Of a stretch of DNA of 64,000 nucleotides, positions 22,353 to 31,517 are shown piece after piece. The stretch spans positions 1-64,000 of the forward strand of contig CBDUPA010000002.1 in NCBI GenBank assembly GCA_965368975.1, given 5' to 3'. The notes under the pieces were generated by a model. It worked only from the letters and a program-made list of their open reading frames with translations. It did not search any database and had not been told where the DNA came from. The position numbers and the translations under genes were made by a program. The stretch's first letter is position 1; each line of letters opens with the position of its first letter. This stretch comes from an uncultured bacterium. GTDB taxonomy: Bacteria; Acidobacteriota; Thermoanaerobaculia; Multivoradales; JAHZIX01.

Positions 22353-22420
22353 GCGGCAAGCCACCGGCACAACCACCAGCCCTCAGCCACTCCCCAGATC
22401 AGAGGCGGGCTAGAAGAACC

Positions 22421-22466
22421 AAAGAAACGAGAAAGTCGATGACAAGGCGACTTTCTCGTTATCTTT
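22421..22466. terminator. Strong inverted repeat between convergent genes, possible bidirectional terminator
   Basis: AACGAGAAAGTCG-N9-CGACTTTCTCGTT 13-bp perfect stem, extendable with AAAG/CTTT. Confidence 0.5.
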
Positions 22467-22559: not shown

Positions 22560-23741
22560 TCAGTTCGCGGTGCAGGGCGGCGTTCGCGTGCCGGTGGTCG
22601 ACAGCTCGAAGGTCTCGACGACGCTGCCCAGCGAGTTGACGCACCAGCTTCCAACGCAGGCGACGCCACCCAGGCGCGAATAGGCGATCTGCAGGCGATT
22701 GTGCCAGTAGGCGGAACAGGCCAGATCGTGGCTCGATGCTTTACCGAGGTCGACGACCTGGGCAATCGGCTCGGTACCCCAGGAGCAGTCGCTGTCGGGG
22801 TCGTTGCTGGCGGCCTGGGCGAGGGCGACGAGGGCCTGGCCGTTCCCGGCGGCGGTGAGTGAGACGCCGGCCAGTTCGAATGGCACACCGCTCCAGGTCC
22901 AGACGGGACGGCTGGGACGCGCATTGCCGAGCTGGTAGAGGGCGACCGCGTCGCGCTGGCGCACGGCCAGGTAGACGTGGTCACCGATGCGCGCGACGGC
23001 CCCCGCGACGGCGTTCTCCGCCCCCAGGTTCAGGGTCCACTTCTGCTGCGGAGCTCCACCGCTGGCCACGGAGTACGCGGTGACGGCGCTCAGGCTCGCA
23101 TTGCCGACCACGATCCAGCCGTCTCCCGCCGCGGCCCAACGGTTGCCGCTCCCCAGTGACTGCTTGGAGGGCTTGCCGGCACCGTCGAAGCGGTAGACCC
23201 AGGTACCCTGGTTGGACCCTTCGTCGAACACCGCAACGGCGTAGTCGCCGGTGCTGGCCACTGAGCAGTCCTGACCGTTGGTGCTGGCGTCCTGGTAGAG
23301 CAGTTGGTTCTTGCCCGTGACGCTCCACGCCGTGTAGCCGATATCGGGACCACAAAGATCGATACGGGAGCCCGCTTCGTTGATGTCACCGTCCGCGACA
23401 GGCCGGAAGTTCTTGGCGTCTGGAGGGCAGGTGATTCCCGGTGTCTGGCCGCAGACGATGAAGACCCGAGAGGACGCCGCCGACAGCGCGCCGCGCTCCT
23501 GCTGGCTGACGACCCACGCGCCGTGGGTATGGGGGATCAGGACCCGGCTGCGCGCGGCTGTGGGTATCAGGCCGAACGGAGGCCAGTGGCCGTAGCCATC
23601 GAAGCTGGAGGCGTCGTAGCGCACTTCTTGCTCTTGCATCCAGCCGATGGCGGCTGGCGGCGGCGGTGCCGGGTGGACGTCGCACTGGACGTCGCCGGCG
23701 GCGACGATTCCGATCCAGGCGAGTAGAGCTTGGGTGAACAT
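22560..23741 (-). CDS. Hypothetical exported Cys-rich all-beta (propeller-like) protein
   Basis: SD AAGGAG; hydrophobic N-terminus; 10 Cys; repeated short beta-strand motifs (TWVYRFD, WIVVGN, VTAYSV, KWTLNL, VYLAV, VALYQL). Confidence 0.6.
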   Translation of the reverse strand: MFTQALLAWIGIVAAGDVQCDVHPAPPPPAAIGWMQEQEVRYDASSFDGYGHWPPFGLIPTAARSRVLIPHTHGAWVVSQQERGALSAASSRVFIVCGQTPGITCPPDAKNFRPVADGDINEAGSRIDLCGPDIGYTAWSVTGKNQLLYQDASTNGQDCSVASTGDYAVAVFDEGSNQGTWVYRFDGAGKPSKQSLGSGNRWAAAGDGWIVVGNASLSAVTAYSVASGGAPQQKWTLNLGAENAVAGAVARIGDHVYLAVRQRDAVALYQLGNARPSRPVWTWSGVPFELAGVSLTAAGNGQALVALAQAASNDPDSDCSWGTEPIAQVVDLGKASSHDLACSAYWHNRLQIAYSRLGGVACVGSWCVNSLGSVVETFELSTTGTRTPPCTAN

Positions 23742-23780: not shown

Positions 23781-24020
23781 TCAGGCCGCTGGACTGGCGG
23801 CGGCGGGGCCGGCTGCCTGGGCGCGGCGCTGGTGGCCGGTACGAAGCGCTTCGAGCGTTTCGTAAGCCTGTGCGGCCGTGGCCCGCGAGGTCGGGGCCAG
23901 GGATACGGACGCCTGGCATCCCGGGCAGGAAAACTTGCTGCCAGAAACCAGCAACTCGACGGCGACGGGAATCGCGCTGCCACACGGGCAGGGCACGGAC
24001 ACAGAGTTCTCAGGGGCCAT
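23781..24020 (-). CDS. Small zinc-ribbon protein (79 aa)
   Basis: SD AAGGAG; CPCG...CPGC motif followed by a helix; co-oriented within the operon. Confidence 0.65.
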   Translation of the reverse strand: MAPENSVSVPCPCGSAIPVAVELLVSGSKFSCPGCQASVSLAPTSRATAAQAYETLEALRTGHQRRAQAAGPAAASPAA

Positions 24021-24145: not shown

Positions 24146-24835
24146 TCAGGTCTTGTTGTCGGCCTTGCCCGAGCTGAGCGTGATCGGCTGAATGTTGTTG
24201 GAGTAGGCTTGGATGATCGTGGTCACTCCGGGAGGCAGCGGCAGCTGCCCAGCGTGCACCTTGACCTGGTACTCGGCGGAGTTGCTCTTCTGATAGTGCT
24301 GCGCACTGGAGCTCTTGGACTCCTGCGAGTGGGACAAACTGCCGCTGATCGAGACACTGTACGGACCCCAGCCAGCCTTCCCCGTCATCGTGGCCTTACC
24401 CTTGGTCTGCGAGTCGGTCGAACTCGTGTTGTCCTCGCTGTAGCTGGACTTCACTTCCATGGTGAAGCTGATGTCGACATTGTCGACGGCCAGCGAGTTC
24501 AGGGGCAGGATGGTCAGCAGGGGCAGGTCGAAGGTGGTCGAGAACTTGCTGATGTTCGGCGCATCGGTGTCATCGCTGGCCGGCGTGATCACCGAGCGTT
24601 CGAGGATCAGCGAGATCATGATCGGCTCCAGCGTCTGGGGCTTGGAGTCGTCCGTCGTCCCCTGCGGTTCGAAGCACGTCTTCATCAGGAAGTTGACCTG
24701 TTCGGTGCCCATGGCGCCGTTGGCCTGGGCAGCCGCCATCAGGGGGCCGCCGATCAGGCTCTTCATCGGCAAGCCGGTGAACTGCTGCGCCATGGAAAGC
24801 AGCGGAGGTCCTTGGGAAACATTGGTATCAGCCAT
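24146..24835 (-). CDS. DUF2589 family protein (copy A, with long Ser/Thr-rich hairpin)
   Basis: FTGLPMKSLIGGPLMAAAQAN, LPLLTILPLNSLAVDNVDISFTMEVKS, SNSAEYQVKVHAGQLPLPPG; SD AAGGAG. Confidence 0.8.
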   Translation of the reverse strand: MADTNVSQGPPLLSMAQQFTGLPMKSLIGGPLMAAAQANGAMGTEQVNFLMKTCFEPQGTTDDSKPQTLEPIMISLILERSVITPASDDTDAPNISKFSTTFDLPLLTILPLNSLAVDNVDISFTMEVKSSYSEDNTSSTDSQTKGKATMTGKAGWGPYSVSISGSLSHSQESKSSSAQHYQKSNSAEYQVKVHAGQLPLPPGVTTIIQAYSNNIQPITLSSGKADNKT

Positions 24836-24902
24836 TTCGTTCTCCTTCTTCTGTCAGTTGCGGGGACATCCACGCGCTCACGCGGCGCGGGGACGAGTTC
24901 TG

Positions 24903-25580
24903 CTAGCCGGGGATCTGGGCGCGAAGGGCACGGTGGTAGCCCTCCAGCAGCACTTCCAGCCCCCGCGGCGGTTGGTCGGCACGGATCTCGATGTCGAGCG
25001 TCGCCCGGTGTGGGCCACTACTCGGCGGGCTCTTGGCGTCAGCTGCCTGGGGATCTCCCGGCACGGCTGGACCACTCGGCGACGTCGCGGCTCCTGACGA
25101 ACGCTTCTGGGGAAAACCGCACCGTAGCCGGCCGTCGACCTCCTCGATCTCGAGGTCGGTGGTGAAGCGCAGGTTCGACAGCTGCAGCGTCGACGCCGGC
25201 GTCAAGGCGATCAGCGGCACCAGGACCGGGTGTGCCTTGGGCCCGTCGGCGTCGACATGCGGGAATTGCAATGCCACCATCTTGGGCTGTAGCTGCCCCT
25301 TGCTGACTCCCTGCTTGGCGTCTTCCTTCAGCGCCGCCGCGGCCCCCTCCATCGCCTTCAGGGCTTGCTGCAGGGACGCGGACGCGGCCTGCGGATCAGC
25401 GTCACCCGCCAGGTCCCCCGAGACGCGGCTCAGACGATCGGCGAGAGCGTCGAGACCTTCAGAATCGGGAACCGGTTCGAAGTAGTCGTCGAGGATCTGC
25501 AGGTTCTGAGCCCGCAACGACGCACCCGCCTCGACGACGCTGTCGTGGATCGCTTTCAGCAGTTCTTTGAGATCGAGCAT
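24903..25580 (-). CDS. DUF2589 family protein (copy B)
   Basis: LKELLKAIHDSVVEA...QNLQILDDYF, VPLIALTPASTLQLSNLRFTTDLEI, LDIEIRADQPPRGL; SD AAAGGA. Confidence 0.72.
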   Translation of the reverse strand: MLDLKELLKAIHDSVVEAGASLRAQNLQILDDYFEPVPDSEGLDALADRLSRVSGDLAGDADPQAASASLQQALKAMEGAAAALKEDAKQGVSKGQLQPKMVALQFPHVDADGPKAHPVLVPLIALTPASTLQLSNLRFTTDLEIEEVDGRLRCGFPQKRSSGAATSPSGPAVPGDPQAADAKSPPSSGPHRATLDIEIRADQPPRGLEVLLEGYHRALRAQIPG

Positions 25581-25676: not shown

Positions 25677-25692
25677 AGCAAGTCCGGTGCCA
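25677..25692 (-). promoter_or_regulatory. Sigma54 -24/-12 promoter for the DUF2589 operon
   Basis: Minus strand TGGCAC-CGGAC-TTGCT, exact consensus spacing, ~100 nt upstream of ATG 25580. Confidence 0.88.
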
Positions 25693-25889: not shown

Positions 25890-27500
25890 ATGTCAGCTTT
25901 CCAGATACCGCGTGACAACACGCTCGAGGCCTCGACGCAGGTCAGCGATACCCGGGAGCAGCGGAGGGCAGGCCTGAGCATCCCGGCCCTGACCGTGCTC
26001 GCACATCCGCAAGTGAGCTACGTAGGAGCGCGTGTCCTGCTGCCGGCCCTGACTTCCGGCAAGGAGGTCGCCCTGTCGCGCCAGCAGCCGCTGTTCGCTC
26101 AGCCGGGGAAGACGGAGGCGAGTCCGCTAGCAGACTCGCACCTGAGCCGCAAACCGGTGCTGCTGATCCCCGGCGAGGCGGGCTCGATCCGGCTGGACGC
26201 CGGAGGCGCGCGCAGCCGGATCGAGATCTTCGGCAGCACCGGGAGGGAGAGCTTTTCGGCGGAGGAGCTGGAGGCCGGTGTCTGCCTGCTGCTAGGGGGC
26301 TACGTCGCCTTGCTGCTGCACCTGCACCCCCCAGGTCAGCCGACATACGGCGAGCGCTACGGTCTGATCGGTGACAGCGCCGCCCTGACCCGACTGCGCG
26401 GCGACATCCGACGGACAGCGAGAGCGCAGGCACCGGTGCTGCTGCGCGGGGAATCGGGTACCGGCAAGGAACTGGTGGCGCGCGCGTTGCACCAGGCGTC
26501 GAAGCGGCGCGCCAAGCCCTACGTGACGCTGAACCTGGGAGCCGTCCCCGCCTCGCTCGCCGCCGCCGAGCTGTTCGGCGCCAGCCGCGGCGCCTTCACC
26601 GGCGCCGACCAGCCGCGTCAGGGCTACTTCGAGCGCGCGGACGGGGGGACGCTCTTCCTCGACGAGATCGGCGAGGCACAACCGGAGGTGCAAGCGCTGC
26701 TCTTGCGCACCCTGGAGAGCGGCGAGATCCAGTCGGTGGGAACCTCCCGACCGCGGCGCGTCGACGTGCGCGTCATCGCCGCCACCGACGCCGACCTCGA
26801 AACCCAGGTGACCGCGGAGCGCTTCCGGGCGCCACTGCTCTACCGGCTGCAGGCCGAGTCGATCCGTCTGCCTCCCTTGCGCATACGGCGCGACGACATC
26901 GGTCGTCTGCTCCTCCACTTCCTGCGCCAGGAGTTCGAGCACGCGTCCACCGGCAATCCGATCGACGAGCCCGGTCGCCGTCAACGTCCCTGGCTATCGG
27001 CTCGCCTGGTGGCGCGGCTAGCTTGCGCTCCTTGGCCCGGCAACGTGCGGGAGCTGCGCAACGTGGCGCGGCGGCTGGTCAGCGAGTTCTCGTCCGAACA
27101 GGAGGCCGAGCTGCCGGCGGAGCTGGAAGCGGAGCTGTTCGCGGACGAGGACGTCAGCAGCGAAGCCGGCGCCGCGGCAGCGCCCGTGCTACCAACCAAG
27201 CACCGCCCTCGGCGGCAACTACGGCCGGTCACGCAGGTACCGGCAGCGCAGATCCTCGCCGAGCTGCGTGCCAGCCGCTTCAACCTGACGCTGGCCGCCC
27301 AACGGCTTCGCGTTTCCAGGACCGGCCTCTACGGCTGGGTGGAGCGGCATCCGGAGCTACGCAAGGCATCGGACCTGGAGCGCGGCGAGATCATCGAGGC
27401 CCTGAGCCGGGCAGGGGGTGATCTCGACGACGCCGCCGAGCATCTCGGCGTGTCCAGCCACGGCCTGCGCTTGCGCCGCACCGCCCTCGGACTCGACTAG
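25890..27500 (+). CDS. Sigma54-dependent enhancer-binding protein with FHA-like N-terminus and tandem HTHs
   Basis: GESGTGKE, GAFTGA, LFLDEIGE, RVIAATD, WPGNVRELRN; two Fis-like HTHs; start ATG 25890 chosen (ORF open from 25752). Confidence 0.9.
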   Translation: MSAFQIPRDNTLEASTQVSDTREQRRAGLSIPALTVLAHPQVSYVGARVLLPALTSGKEVALSRQQPLFAQPGKTEASPLADSHLSRKPVLLIPGEAGSIRLDAGGARSRIEIFGSTGRESFSAEELEAGVCLLLGGYVALLLHLHPPGQPTYGERYGLIGDSAALTRLRGDIRRTARAQAPVLLRGESGTGKELVARALHQASKRRAKPYVTLNLGAVPASLAAAELFGASRGAFTGADQPRQGYFERADGGTLFLDEIGEAQPEVQALLLRTLESGEIQSVGTSRPRRVDVRVIAATDADLETQVTAERFRAPLLYRLQAESIRLPPLRIRRDDIGRLLLHFLRQEFEHASTGNPIDEPGRRQRPWLSARLVARLACAPWPGNVRELRNVARRLVSEFSSEQEAELPAELEAELFADEDVSSEAGAAAAPVLPTKHRPRRQLRPVTQVPAAQILAELRASRFNLTLAAQRLRVSRTGLYGWVERHPELRKASDLERGEIIEALSRAGGDLDDAAEHLGVSSHGLRLRRTALGLD

Positions 27501-30197
<2,697 letters not shown>

Positions 30198-30199
30198 CC

Positions 30200-30607
30200 T
30201 CAGGTAGGCGGCTTCGCGGGCTCTCCCGGACCTTCCTTCGGCTCGTTGACAATCGACGGATCCGGAAAGTAGGGCACGCCGTCGATCTCCACCTTGAAAC
30301 GAAAGCGGAAGGCGTGCAAATCCTGGGAAGTGTTCTCATTGCTGCACGAGATCTGCAATTGCCCAGAGCCCAACAGTGAGACCGCGGGCTCCAGTGGCCG
30401 GAGACCCTTCCATTCCACGTATTCCCCAGACTTGATGGGCACGAACTCTCCACCCTTCACGTCCAGACGAAGCCGGATCCGAGCCGGGCCATAGGCGACC
30501 TGGATCTGGTTCGTGCCCGAGACGACGCTCGGTCCCGACAGGTGAAACTTGCCGTCTGCACCCTTGACGGTGACGTCATAGATCTTCGCGGACTCTCCGT
30601 TCGCCAT
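30200..30607 (-). CDS. Small beta-rich protein with C-terminal DPxIxNEP motif (DP-EP/DUF1888-like)
   Basis: ATG 30607 with SD AAGGAG; 135 aa; ends FRFRFKVEIDGVPYFPDPSIVNEP. Confidence 0.6.
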   Translation of the reverse strand: MANGESAKIYDVTVKGADGKFHLSGPSVVSGTNQIQVAYGPARIRLRLDVKGGEFVPIKSGEYVEWKGLRPLEPAVSLLGSGQLQISCSNENTSQDLHAFRFRFKVEIDGVPYFPDPSIVNEPKEGPGEPAKPPT

Positions 30608-30772: not shown

Positions 30773-30788
30773 TGGCACAGCGCTTGCT
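30773..30788 (+). promoter_or_regulatory. Sigma54 -24/-12 promoter for the DUF1906 gene
   Basis: TGGCAC-AGCGC-TTGCT exact consensus. Confidence 0.88.
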
Positions 30789-30827
30789 ATTCCGGACAAG
30801 CTATTCCGGACAAGCTATTCCGGACAA
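30786..30827 (+). repeat. 14-bp tandem repeat x3
   Basis: GCTATTCCGGACAA repeated three times exactly, starting within the -12 box. Confidence 0.95.
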
Positions 30828-30863
30828 GCGATGCACAACGACCCCCATCCCAAGGAGAGAGCC

Positions 30864-31517
30864 ATGCAACTACCTGGAACCGTACAGACCGCCGCCCCCG
30901 GACTTCGGGGCTTCGACACCGATACTTCCCTCAGGGCCGCAGTCGCCCACCAGCTCGTCGCGCAGGGTTACCACTTCTGCGTGCGCTACCTGTCCCTGGG
31001 CTGCCCGCAGGACCCAGGCGACCTCAGCCATGGCGAAGCCCTCGACATCCTGCAAGCGGGCCTGGCGCTGATGGCCGTCCAGCACGTCCGCTACCCCGGC
31101 TGGACCCCTTCCGCCGCCCTCGGCACCGCCGACGGCACCCACGCGGCCACCAACGCCCAGAGCATCGGCCTACCGCACGGCGTCAACCTATGGTGCGACC
31201 TGGAAGGTGTCGACGCAGCGACCCCGGTTCAGGACATCCTCGCCTACGGCAACGCCTGGTACCAGGCCGTCACCACCGCCGGCTACGTAGCCGGGCTCTA
31301 CGTCGGCGCCGGCAGCCGCCTGAACGGCCAACAGCTCCAAGGGGAACTCCAGTTCCAGCACTTCTGGAAATCCGCCAGCGACGTCCCCGAGATCGTCCGC
31401 GGCTACCAGCTGATCCAGGGCGACCCGGACACTTCCCTGGACGGTGTCTCGATCGACCGAGACACTACCCAGACCGATCACGAGGGTGTCAGCGTCCAGT
31501 GGCTGAGCCAGTCCTAG
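30864..31517 (+). CDS. DUF1906 / Rv2525c-like glycoside hydrolase (putative peptidoglycan hydrolase)
   Basis: GFDTDT, GYHFCVRYL, DLSHGEA, AGLALMAVQ, GTADGTHAA, WCDLEG, GYVAGLYVG, IDRD; SD AAGGAG before ATG 30864. Confidence 0.75.
   Translation: MQLPGTVQTAAPGLRGFDTDTSLRAAVAHQLVAQGYHFCVRYLSLGCPQDPGDLSHGEALDILQAGLALMAVQHVRYPGWTPSAALGTADGTHAATNAQSIGLPHGVNLWCDLEGVDAATPVQDILAYGNAWYQAVTTAGYVAGLYVGAGSRLNGQQLQGELQFQHFWKSASDVPEIVRGYQLIQGDPDTSLDGVSIDRDTTQTDHEGVSVQWLSQS

Follow-up and report, generated by a model that had tools for sequence, protein, structure and literature searches.

The window analysed here, a stretch of 64,000 nucleotides (nt) from contig CBDUPA010000002.1 of assembly GCA_965368975.1 (whole genome 7.13 Mb), carries two genes of the DUF2589 family, A and B, together with a gene for a small zinc-ribbon protein, z. 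These three genes recur as a unit in bacterial and viral genomes. A/B/z is proposed to be an inducible, holin-like module that breaches the membrane from the cytoplasm for the benefit of wall hydrolases without an export signal, or of other cargo. The probability of this reading is put at only about 40%, because we infer every step from assembly onwards. Somewhat more doubtful is a wider version, in which A/B/z would represent an unrecognised class of membrane-perforating machines with a fold of its own, present in bacteria, archaea, tailed phages and giant viruses; it would insert beta-hairpins from inside, taking the place of a holin for wall hydrolases without export signal and for other cargo, and in this soil bacterium would be wired by a kinase, a sigma-54 activator and two promoters into a programmed lysis or release switch.

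Several features were counted in favour of membrane breaching. The trio has a fixed composition in both bacterial and viral loci. The hairpin of A is alternating and symmetric, and is left unmodelled in the monomer beside a confident core. A, B and a hydrolase predicted to be co-regulated carry neither a signal peptide nor a transmembrane segment. Two of the sigma-54 sites of the genome lie in this window and a common 11-mer accompanies them, which points to co-regulation; the only PF08924 gene of the genome stands at the second site and has a relative near the module of a myxobacterium. Finally, wall-active genes recur beside the module in bacteria and viruses, in one case together with a holin, and the module is accessory, with regulators next to it in many lineages.

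A, B and z Form a Conserved Trio

Both A and B lie above the gathering cut-off of 23 bits for Pfam family PF11655 (DUF2589; Table 1). BLASTP of A against B gave nothing significant (best E 0.90). Despite this, hhalign matched a 105-row A profile to a 95-row B profile with a probability of 97.9% (E 5.3e-13, 150 columns), and by this profile match A and B are homologous, strongly diverged paralogues. The asymmetric DUF2589 pair proposed in a preliminary description of this DNA is thus borne out. The same description had assigned to B a Pro/Ser linker and an extra N-terminal insert, and both are seen in the profile alignment: relative to A, B has an insert of ~60 residues (35-96) behind the first helix, and at the position of the hairpin of A it carries PQKRSSGAATSPSGPAVPGDPQAADAKSPPSSGP, a linker of 45 residues, 60% of which are Pro, Ser, Ala or Gly.

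The two paralogues are not equally conserved. For A, 1079 homologues were found, with an identity of 52-60% across phyla among the 120 listed. For B, 208 representatives were found at E<=0.001 and just four at E<=1e-30, and the aligned relatives are 24-52% identical to the B of the window. Judged by these identities, B evolves faster than A. The Kyte-Doolittle maximum in 19-residue windows is 1.23 for A, 1.37 for B and 1.65 for z, where it falls in the Cys region; no window of A or B reaches the hydrophobicity of a transmembrane segment. The hydrophobicity of their N-termini indicates no signal peptide in either A or B, in agreement with the preliminary description.

The comparison set consisted of 80 fetched bacterial loci from Bacteroidota, Gamma-, Alpha- and Betaproteobacteria, Myxococcota, Acidobacteriota, Campylobacterota, Planctomycetota and Bacillota, to which the window was added for the counts of paralogues and z (81 loci). 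Each of the 81 loci contains an array of two to four DUF2589 paralogues. A same-strand open reading frame (ORF) of ~65 amino acids (aa), homologous to z, is present in 78 of the 81. It is absent from loci L011, L048 and L059; the DNA of L011 stops ~70 nt past A, and L048 is a contig of 3.6 kb. The z family alignment shows CPxC, ~16 residues, CxxC and then a C-terminal helix, and the only Pfam matches of z are to zinc fingers, below threshold. In the z of the window the first knuckle reads CPC, a deletion of one residue relative to 77 relatives.

Viral loci were collected from IMG/VR contigs with A1 sequence patterns, whereas a scan with the A2 pattern gave no match. Relatives are encoded in 107 of 124 candidate stretches, and 80 of these loci were kept for gene counts. 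A+B+z occur together in 67, B+A only in nine, z+A in two, and A only and z only in one each. The contigs bearing the module are up to 483 kb long. A plasmid search returned four weak matches.

The window thus resembles the other loci: it has a hairpin-bearing and a hairpin-less paralogue, and a four-Cys ORF adjacent on the same strand. By these counts, the unit is the trio A+B+z, not a pair. The fixed co-occurrence of paralogues in every bacterial locus supports a hetero-oligomer. To this extent the two-component oligomer of the preliminary description holds, but it is one component short: there are at least three, and z had been missed.

Six gammaproteobacterial loci (L049, L050, L054, L071, L073 and L080) have four DUF2589 paralogues in a row ahead of z. 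Just upstream of these arrays lie a NusG-like gene (cluster 71) in L049, L050 and L080, and an AraC-type gene (cluster 42) in L049, L050, L073 and L080.

The Hairpin of A

The segment of A that distinguishes it from B contains 38% Ser and Thr, vs. 19% in the remainder of the protein (the peptide quoted in the preliminary description covers residues 123-191). The arms are equally long on both sides of G155-W-G-P158. A column analysis of 63 A orthologues revealed strict alternation of hydrophobic and polar residues at positions 115-133, 148-155, 158-170 and 187-198, with variable polar stretches at 134-147 and 171-180. In these orthologues the amphipathicity is confined to the tip half of the hairpin, the base half being polar. 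One face of the tip half is made up of Phe/Ala/Val/Trp and Phe/Ala/Val/Gly/Ala/Tyr, the other of Ser/Thr/Lys/Glu/Asp. Such an alternation, amphipathic at the tip and polar at the base, is the pattern of the membrane hairpins in beta-barrel pore formers. The stretches 148-155 and 158-170 could span a bilayer, but with 8-12 residues per strand they are marginal.

The hairpin is kept in all A orthologues examined and is, by this alignment, a family-wide trait of the A type. The alternating Ser/Thr strands and the GWGP turn of the preliminary description are therefore real, but they are not special to this copy, as they are conserved in the 63 orthologues.

A model of A was obtained with AlphaFold2 from 105 rows, including the more distant A2 paralogues; its mean predicted local distance difference test score (pLDDT) is 72.6 and its predicted template modelling score 0.55. 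It replaced a run with 25 close orthologues (mean pLDDT 52). The core, with pLDDT 76-96, comprises a helix (24-54), five strands (55-58, 68-84, 94-105, 114-127 and 186-198) and a second helix (202-214). Residues 131-182 stay below 50 in this monomer model and sit in sequence between the two long strands 114-127 and 186-198. They are read as a protruding hairpin, with a conformation undefined in the monomer and with flanking strands that probably pair.

No solved fold was recognised with this model. Foldseek against 350,542 chains gave a best E of 0.53, and VIA-align a best Z of 4.1, with Z>=5 for none of 48,161 chains. As the hairpin is unmodelled, only the core was compared with aerolysin, haemolysin, MACPF, cholesterol-dependent cytolysins and gasdermin, and there is no support for placing A in the aerolysin, MACPF or gasdermin folds. 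The likeness to pore formers noted in the preliminary description is borne out for the pattern of the hairpin, and is unsupported for the core, which matched neither these nor any other solved folds. A profile search of PDB sequences with A1 returned a chance match only (E 1.3). A single unnamed viral homologue of A, without an attached function, was found in BFVD (E 2.4e-8), and the ESM Atlas returned DUF2589 clusters alone. Longer fused forms of A are uninformative, only three having been found. Predictions of the A+B complex with alignments A2 and A3 reached interaction prediction scores from aligned errors of 0.01 and 0.05 vs. a mark of 0.32, values that stand without controls and were used neither way.

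Searches of PADLOC, PHROGs and NCBIfam yielded nothing significant for A, B, z or orf393, the fourth gene of the operon, and no PADLOC model matched any of the four. In the full text of the literature, supplements not covered, DUF2589 or PF11655 has passing mentions only, and no paper describing the module was found.

Sigma-54 Promoters and the Adjoining Regulators

The genes are ordered B-A-z-orf393, with gaps of 67, 125 and 39 nt. Each is preceded by a GGAG-type Shine-Dalgarno sequence (GGA-rich before the ATG of B), and the GC content at third codon positions (GC3) is 0.76-0.87. An exact sigma-54 promoter, P1, precedes B, and a second one, P2, precedes a hydrolase gene. The exact consensus TGGCAC-N5-TTGC occurs twice in the window vs. 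0.39 times expected, a number reached by six of 100 shuffles, and 26 times in the whole genome on both strands. P1 and P2 are 5.1 kb apart and point outwards from a pair of genes for a sigma-54 activator and a Ser/Thr kinase; the gene that follows each of the two promoters has a Shine-Dalgarno sequence.

Candidate activator sites of the ACCGTCCGACGG type are common to both promoter regions. The 11-mer ACCGTCCGACG has 11 copies in the genome, three of them local; the third of these is located 133 nt upstream of P1, within the palindrome GGACGGTACCGTCC, which itself occurs once in the genome. Upstream of P2, the 13-mer ACCGTCCGACGGT is present in the only two copies that the genome possesses. 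In addition, the 14-mer TATTCCGGACAAGC is repeated three times in exact tandem at 30788-30829 (+), between P2 and the Shine-Dalgarno sequence of the hydrolase gene. No further copy is found in the 7.13-Mb genome, and these repeats may be a leader or operator element.

The activator is a putative bacterial enhancer-binding protein. It is 55% identical over 524 residues to the activator adjoining the module in L005, a metagenome-assembled genome of the Thermoanaerobaculia. Its N-terminal 160 residues have no Pfam match even at E<=5; an FHA-like identity, considered for this domain, is unsupported at the same limit. The kinase ORF starts at 27501, the base directly after the end of the activator ORF at 27500, and similar kinases adjoin the module in L004, L005 and L011.

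The consensus with correct spacing at P1 and P2, and the Sigma54_activat domain of the activator, are what would be expected of a sigma-54 regulon. The two exact promoters, the common upstream motif and the adjoining activator-kinase pair suggest a small regulon, in which the kinase would act on the activator, and the activator on P1 (B-A-z-orf393) and P2 (the hydrolase gene).

The genome has a single DUF2589 cassette. A is present in two of the 40 relatives searched and in none of five genomes of the same family, and dedicated regulators stand beside the module in many lineages; the module is accessory and tightly regulated. In the window, the cassette is bordered by housekeeping genes, with thrS, pheS, pheT, rny and ymdB to one side and uvrA, along with a MacB-type permease gene, to the other.

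The Hydrolase at P2

The gene downstream of P2 (ATG at 30864, Shine-Dalgarno sequence AAGGAGAG) codes for the only PF08924 match of the genome. This predicted hydrolase of 217 aa has no hydrophobic N-terminus. It is 41% identical (E 1e-38) to the product of a gene two places downstream of the module in L007, from the myxobacterium Polyangium fumosum. A CDLEG stretch is kept in both proteins and may correspond to the catalytic Asp-x-Glu motif of GH25 lysozymes. The two sigma-54 promoters and their common upstream motif suggest that the hydrolase is co-expressed with the module. A holin-endolysin or type 10-like cassette would require a signal-less peptidoglycan hydrolase that is expressed together with the membrane component; of this, a signal-less, hydrolase-like gene is present, with an enzymatic activity that is predicted only.

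Genes beside the Module in Bacteria and Viruses

The ORFs of the 80 bacterial loci and of the window were grouped by clustering. For the two genes closest to the module on either side, one representative of every similarity cluster was compared with Pfam. In this way 248 neighbour proteins (150 + 78 + 20) were scanned. The gene directly downstream on the same strand differs from locus to locus. In 14 of the 80 loci, a wall-active enzyme of one of six families lies within two genes of the module (Table 1), and those of the M15, Tlde1 and Rv2525c-like types have no N-terminal membrane anchor. Wall hydrolases generally account for well under 1% of genes. Against this general, unmatched background the 14 loci and the six independently recruited families of wall enzymes look like an excess, in loci that are phylogenetically non-independent. 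Regulators are common neighbours too: LytTR proteins, response regulators, a tetratricopeptide repeat (TPR) histidine kinase, AraC, NusG-like proteins, sigma-54 activators and Ser/Thr kinases.

For the viral loci, 96 cluster-representative proteins encoded within three genes of the module were scanned. A lysozyme or GH19 enzyme was found in 18 of the 80 loci, in clusters of nine, five and four, and in L111 the gene directly upstream of the module codes for a holin of the gene transfer agent (GTA) type. Other viral loci have nucleases and a patatin beside the module.

Table 1. Features of the window, and enzymes and other proteins encoded next to the module in other bacterial loci.
Feature	Position or loci	Strand	Remarks
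Terminator-like hairpin and U-tract past orf393	22419..22457	-	10-bp stem, 9-nt loop, -13.6 kcal/mol, then GUUUCUUUGG
orf393, fourth, variable operon gene	22560..23741	-	Orphan, 10 Cys, hydrophobic N-terminus; AAGGAG Shine-Dalgarno, GC3 0.84
z, four-Cys zinc-ribbon partner	23781..24020	-	79 aa, C11/C13/C32/C35, C-terminal helix; AAAGGAG Shine-Dalgarno
A, hairpin-bearing DUF2589 paralogue	24146..24835	-	229 aa; PF11655 E 5.9e-27, 95.3 bits
Ser/Thr-rich amphipathic hairpin segment of A, residues 128-185	24281..24454	-	58 residues, GWGP turn
B, hairpin-less DUF2589 paralogue	24903..25580	-	225 aa, first gene of the operon; PF11655 E 1.2e-6, 29.4 bits
P1, sigma-54 promoter	25678..25692	-	TGGCACCGGACTTGC; exact TGGCAC-N5-TTGC, 98 nt upstream of B ATG
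Candidate activator-binding site upstream of P1	25815..25832	.	Palindrome GGACGGTACCGTCC overlapping ACCGTCCGACG
Divergent sigma-54 activator	25890..27500	+	N-terminal domain, AAA+, Fis-type helix-turn-helix; Sigma54_activat E 1.3e-59, HTH_8; ATG 25890
Ser/Thr protein kinase with C-terminal TPR repeats	27501..30197	+	Pkinase E 2.9e-43, TPR families
Candidate activator sites upstream of P2	30674..30706	+	Two copies of 13-mer ACCGTCCGACGGT, 79 and 99 nt upstream of P2
P2, second sigma-54 promoter	30773..30787	+	TGGCACAGCGCTTGC; exact consensus, just past the kinase gene, upstream of the hydrolase gene
Rv2525c/GH25-like glycoside hydrolase-like protein	30864..31517	+	217 aa, signal-less; PF08924 E 1.7e-22, 81 bits
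GH25 (cluster 7)	L025, L027, L031, L036, L039, L047, L055, L064		L025 scanned, others assigned by clustering
M15_4 + PG_binding_1	L038, L078
Tlde1	L013
Rv2525c-like	L007
MltA insert	L022		E 5e-6
PF11860 muramidase	L030	opposite
C39-like peptidases	L026, L042
eCIS_core protein	L051
Deaminase-like protein	L017

Proposed Mechanism and Alternatives

If A/B/z opens the membrane, the following sequence of events can be envisaged. In this genome the module would be a silent, sigma-54-dependent operon (B-A-z-orf393). The TPR Ser/Thr kinase would sense a signal and activate the adjoining sigma-54 activator, which would bind the common ACCGTCCGAC-type sites and fire both P1, for the module, and P2, for the GH25-like hydrolase without export signal. 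The soluble proteins A, B and z would gather at the inner face of the cytoplasmic membrane. The hairpins of A would then insert as a beta-sheet or barrel and open the membrane, in the manner of a holin or of a gasdermin acting from inside, although A would be a member of neither family. The hairpin-less B and z might nucleate, cap or restrain the assembly. Through the hole the hydrolase would reach the wall, resulting in controlled lysis or in the release of cargo, possibly orf393, as in type 10 secretion.

Several observations weigh against this proposal. With 8-12 residues per strand, the hairpin offers a short hydrophobic face in which Ala and Gly are abundant, and the model of A resembles no pore-former fold by Foldseek or VIA-align. 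None of the 80 other loci shows the sigma-54 motif upstream of the module, which makes this wiring a local one, and none of five other module-bearing genomes yielded a homologue of the hydrolase (GH217). Moreover, in 66 of the 80 bacterial loci no wall enzyme could be recognised within two genes, and the commonest enzyme of this kind, GH25 of cluster 7, is itself equipped with an N-terminal membrane anchor. Further neighbours resemble nucleases, deaminases or peptidases, or have no family. They include the proteins in the last rows of Table 1, a cluster resembling endonucleases, exonucleases and phosphatases (E 4.6e-5, just short of the cut-off), lipoproteins (cluster 8) and many ORFs without family. 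A tblastn search of 50,697 GenBank phage records gave no match. Furthermore, DUF2589-related genes occur in an archaeon without murein, Archaeoglobus fulgidus, where a passage of PMC3949148 mentions AF0414-AF0417 as induced on lactate. Finally, the psp system, which protects the membrane, likewise combines a sigma-54 promoter and a divergent activator.

This last point leads to an alternative in which A/B/z would be a scaffold for envelope stress, coating or stabilising the inner membrane where the wall is damaged, as PspA/Vipp1 do, and protecting it instead of opening it. The classic psp arrangement of promoter and activator, the cytoplasmic location of proteins with amphipathic elements and the wall-active neighbours, which suit an envelope theme, all fit such a role, as does a DUF2589 gene among the genes responding to carbapenem in Bacteroides fragilis, according to a table row in PMC11402942. 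However, A and B match neither PspA nor any helical coat family. Phages and viral contigs of very large size carry the trio as well, next to lysozymes in some lineages and in one case next to a holin, and a promoter type and upstream motif in common with a signal-less hydrolase would be odd for a protective system. The scaffold is considered unlikely.

An assembly away from the membrane, namely a cytoplasmic cage, tube or filament that holds a variable enzyme as cargo or client, would use the hairpin as an arm for strand exchange between subunits. The identity of 52-60% of A across phyla, among the 120 listed homologues, is as expected of a tightly packed polymer. The arrays of several paralogues, the gene beside the module that varies by locus, the pair amid capsid and adaptor genes in viral loci L096, L102-L106 and L144, and the disorder of the hairpin in the monomer model are all compatible with it. 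On the other hand, no capsid, encapsulin, tube or sheath fold was matched (best VIA Z 4.1), the hairpin has a single hydrophobic face in its tip half only, as membrane hairpins do, and the module has links to lysis genes. Such an assembly is considered as unlikely as the scaffold.

Lower still is the probability of an effector of abortive infection or defence, with the kinase and activator sensing a phage, membrane damage killing the cell, and the viral copies being captured versions. The patchy accessory distribution (two of 40 relatives) would agree with defence, as would the neighbours in some loci, namely an AbiLi-like ATPase in L060, a PDC-S27 candidate in L021, a STAND NTPase in L069, and integrase or transposase genes in L021 and L036. 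Yet PADLOC models recognise only two of the 117 bacterial neighbour proteins at E<=1e-10 and none of the four proteins A, B, z and orf393, and the module of the window is surrounded by housekeeping genes (thrS, pheST, rny, ymdB and uvrA). As for an R-body-like or Reb-associated polymer, suggested by a link between DUF2589 and reb clusters that the preliminary description had put forward, it is extremely improbable: no Reb family was detected among the 248 neighbour proteins of the 80 loci, nor among the 20 window ORFs scanned against Pfam, where its absence had been stated correctly.

Comparison with Known Systems

The closest relatives of the module are the uncharacterised DUF2589 arrays of other bacteria, archaea and viruses, in which the same A/B/z arrangement prevails (78 of 81 loci in bacteria, 67 of 80 in viruses). 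Compared with them, the window adds the sigma-54 promoter, the activator-kinase pair and a hydrolase predicted to be co-regulated, and its z has CPC instead of CPxC.

Whereas holins are small membrane proteins of alpha-helical structure, no transmembrane segment is found in A, B or z, and A and B are described as soluble alpha/beta proteins of ~230 aa; this weakens the statement that the module is a holin, but not that it works like one. No spanin was recognised. The likeness lies in the module-bearing loci next to lysozymes, M15 peptidases, a PF11860 muramidase and a GTA holin, and in the apparent pairing and co-induction, under tight control, of a wall hydrolase without export signal and a separate membrane-crossing device (for holin-endolysin and type 10 secretion systems, see PMC10847048 and PMC10109510).

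In gasdermin systems, the protein has an N-terminal cysteine for lipidation and an adjacent activating protease. A has no Cys at its N-terminus, its only one being C54, and no fold match; no protease domain was detected among the scanned window genes, and the module includes a paralogue and a zinc ribbon. What bacterial gasdermins share with A is a cytoplasmic, signal-less nature and a similar size, and the opening of the cell's own membrane from inside with beta-hairpins, as reported of them (10.1101/2021.06.07.447441, PMC10153256), is the mode proposed for A.

Secreted beta-barrel toxins such as aerolysin and alpha-haemolysin have the same Ser/Thr-rich alternating hairpin with an amphipathic tip and a polar base. 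Unlike these toxins, A has neither a signal peptide nor a fold match, belongs to a module of three components and would act on its own membrane. The psp regulon of enterobacteria also combines a sigma-54 promoter and a divergent activator beside an envelope-related operon. In the window, in contrast, a kinase gene directly follows the activator and a second promoter would drive a hydrolase, and A, B, z and orf393 have no match to the PspA family.

How folded enzymes or toxins without export signal pass the inner membrane has, to our knowledge, been explained so far only by helical holins and, in defence, by gasdermins. If the proposal is true, A/B/z would be a third widespread device, with an unfamiliar fold, and thereby a new principle of cell lysis and protein release. 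The contribution of the window is a chromosomal copy with an explicit predicted sigma-54/activator/kinase switch and a signal-less GH25-like enzyme that is probably co-regulated. With three core genes that could be transferred to E. coli, such a switch and a predicted client enzyme, and coming from a non-pathogenic soil bacterium, it is a clean test bed. Even if the pore reading fails, a three-gene module with an A protein 52-60% identical across phyla, among the homologues listed, and without a known fold merits a structure.

Further Features of the Operon and of Other Loci

The last gene of the operon, orf393, has no match in Pfam, NCBIfam, PADLOC or PHROG and was found in none of the 40 relatives. 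The Kyte-Doolittle mean of its 12 N-terminal residues is 2.19, and the protein may be exported. The ESM Atlas gave scores of only 0.85-0.87 for orf393, including a weak lead to a BamB-like beta-propeller (0.86). A phmmer match in PDB (E 0.0043 across 50 residues) was not used. The terminator-like hairpin past orf393 was not listed by a simple terminator scanner.

An ORF of 135 aa at 30200-30607 (-), with an AAGGAG Shine-Dalgarno sequence, is divergent from the hydrolase gene, with which it has a common intergenic region. Neither a Pfam match nor a hydrophobic segment was detected in its product.

In single bacterial loci, the module adjoins a STAND NTPase with a winged-helix domain and TPR repeats (L069:1872-5087, -), a trypsin-like protease (L029:4554-5654, -) or an AbiLi-like ATPase with DUF3226 (L060). 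L021 has an ATPase_2/DUF234 protein matching PDC-S27, as well as integrase and Tn3-type genes.

In some viral contigs (L096:4532-7547, L102:638-3886 and L144), A/B lie between the genes for the major capsid protein and the head-tail adaptor (SU10 type), or directly after a Gp23-type capsid gene, and this setting may indicate a virion-associated role. A gene for ribosomal protein S21 is located three genes upstream of the module in L088 (2783-3007, +) and in three similar viral loci (cluster 28).

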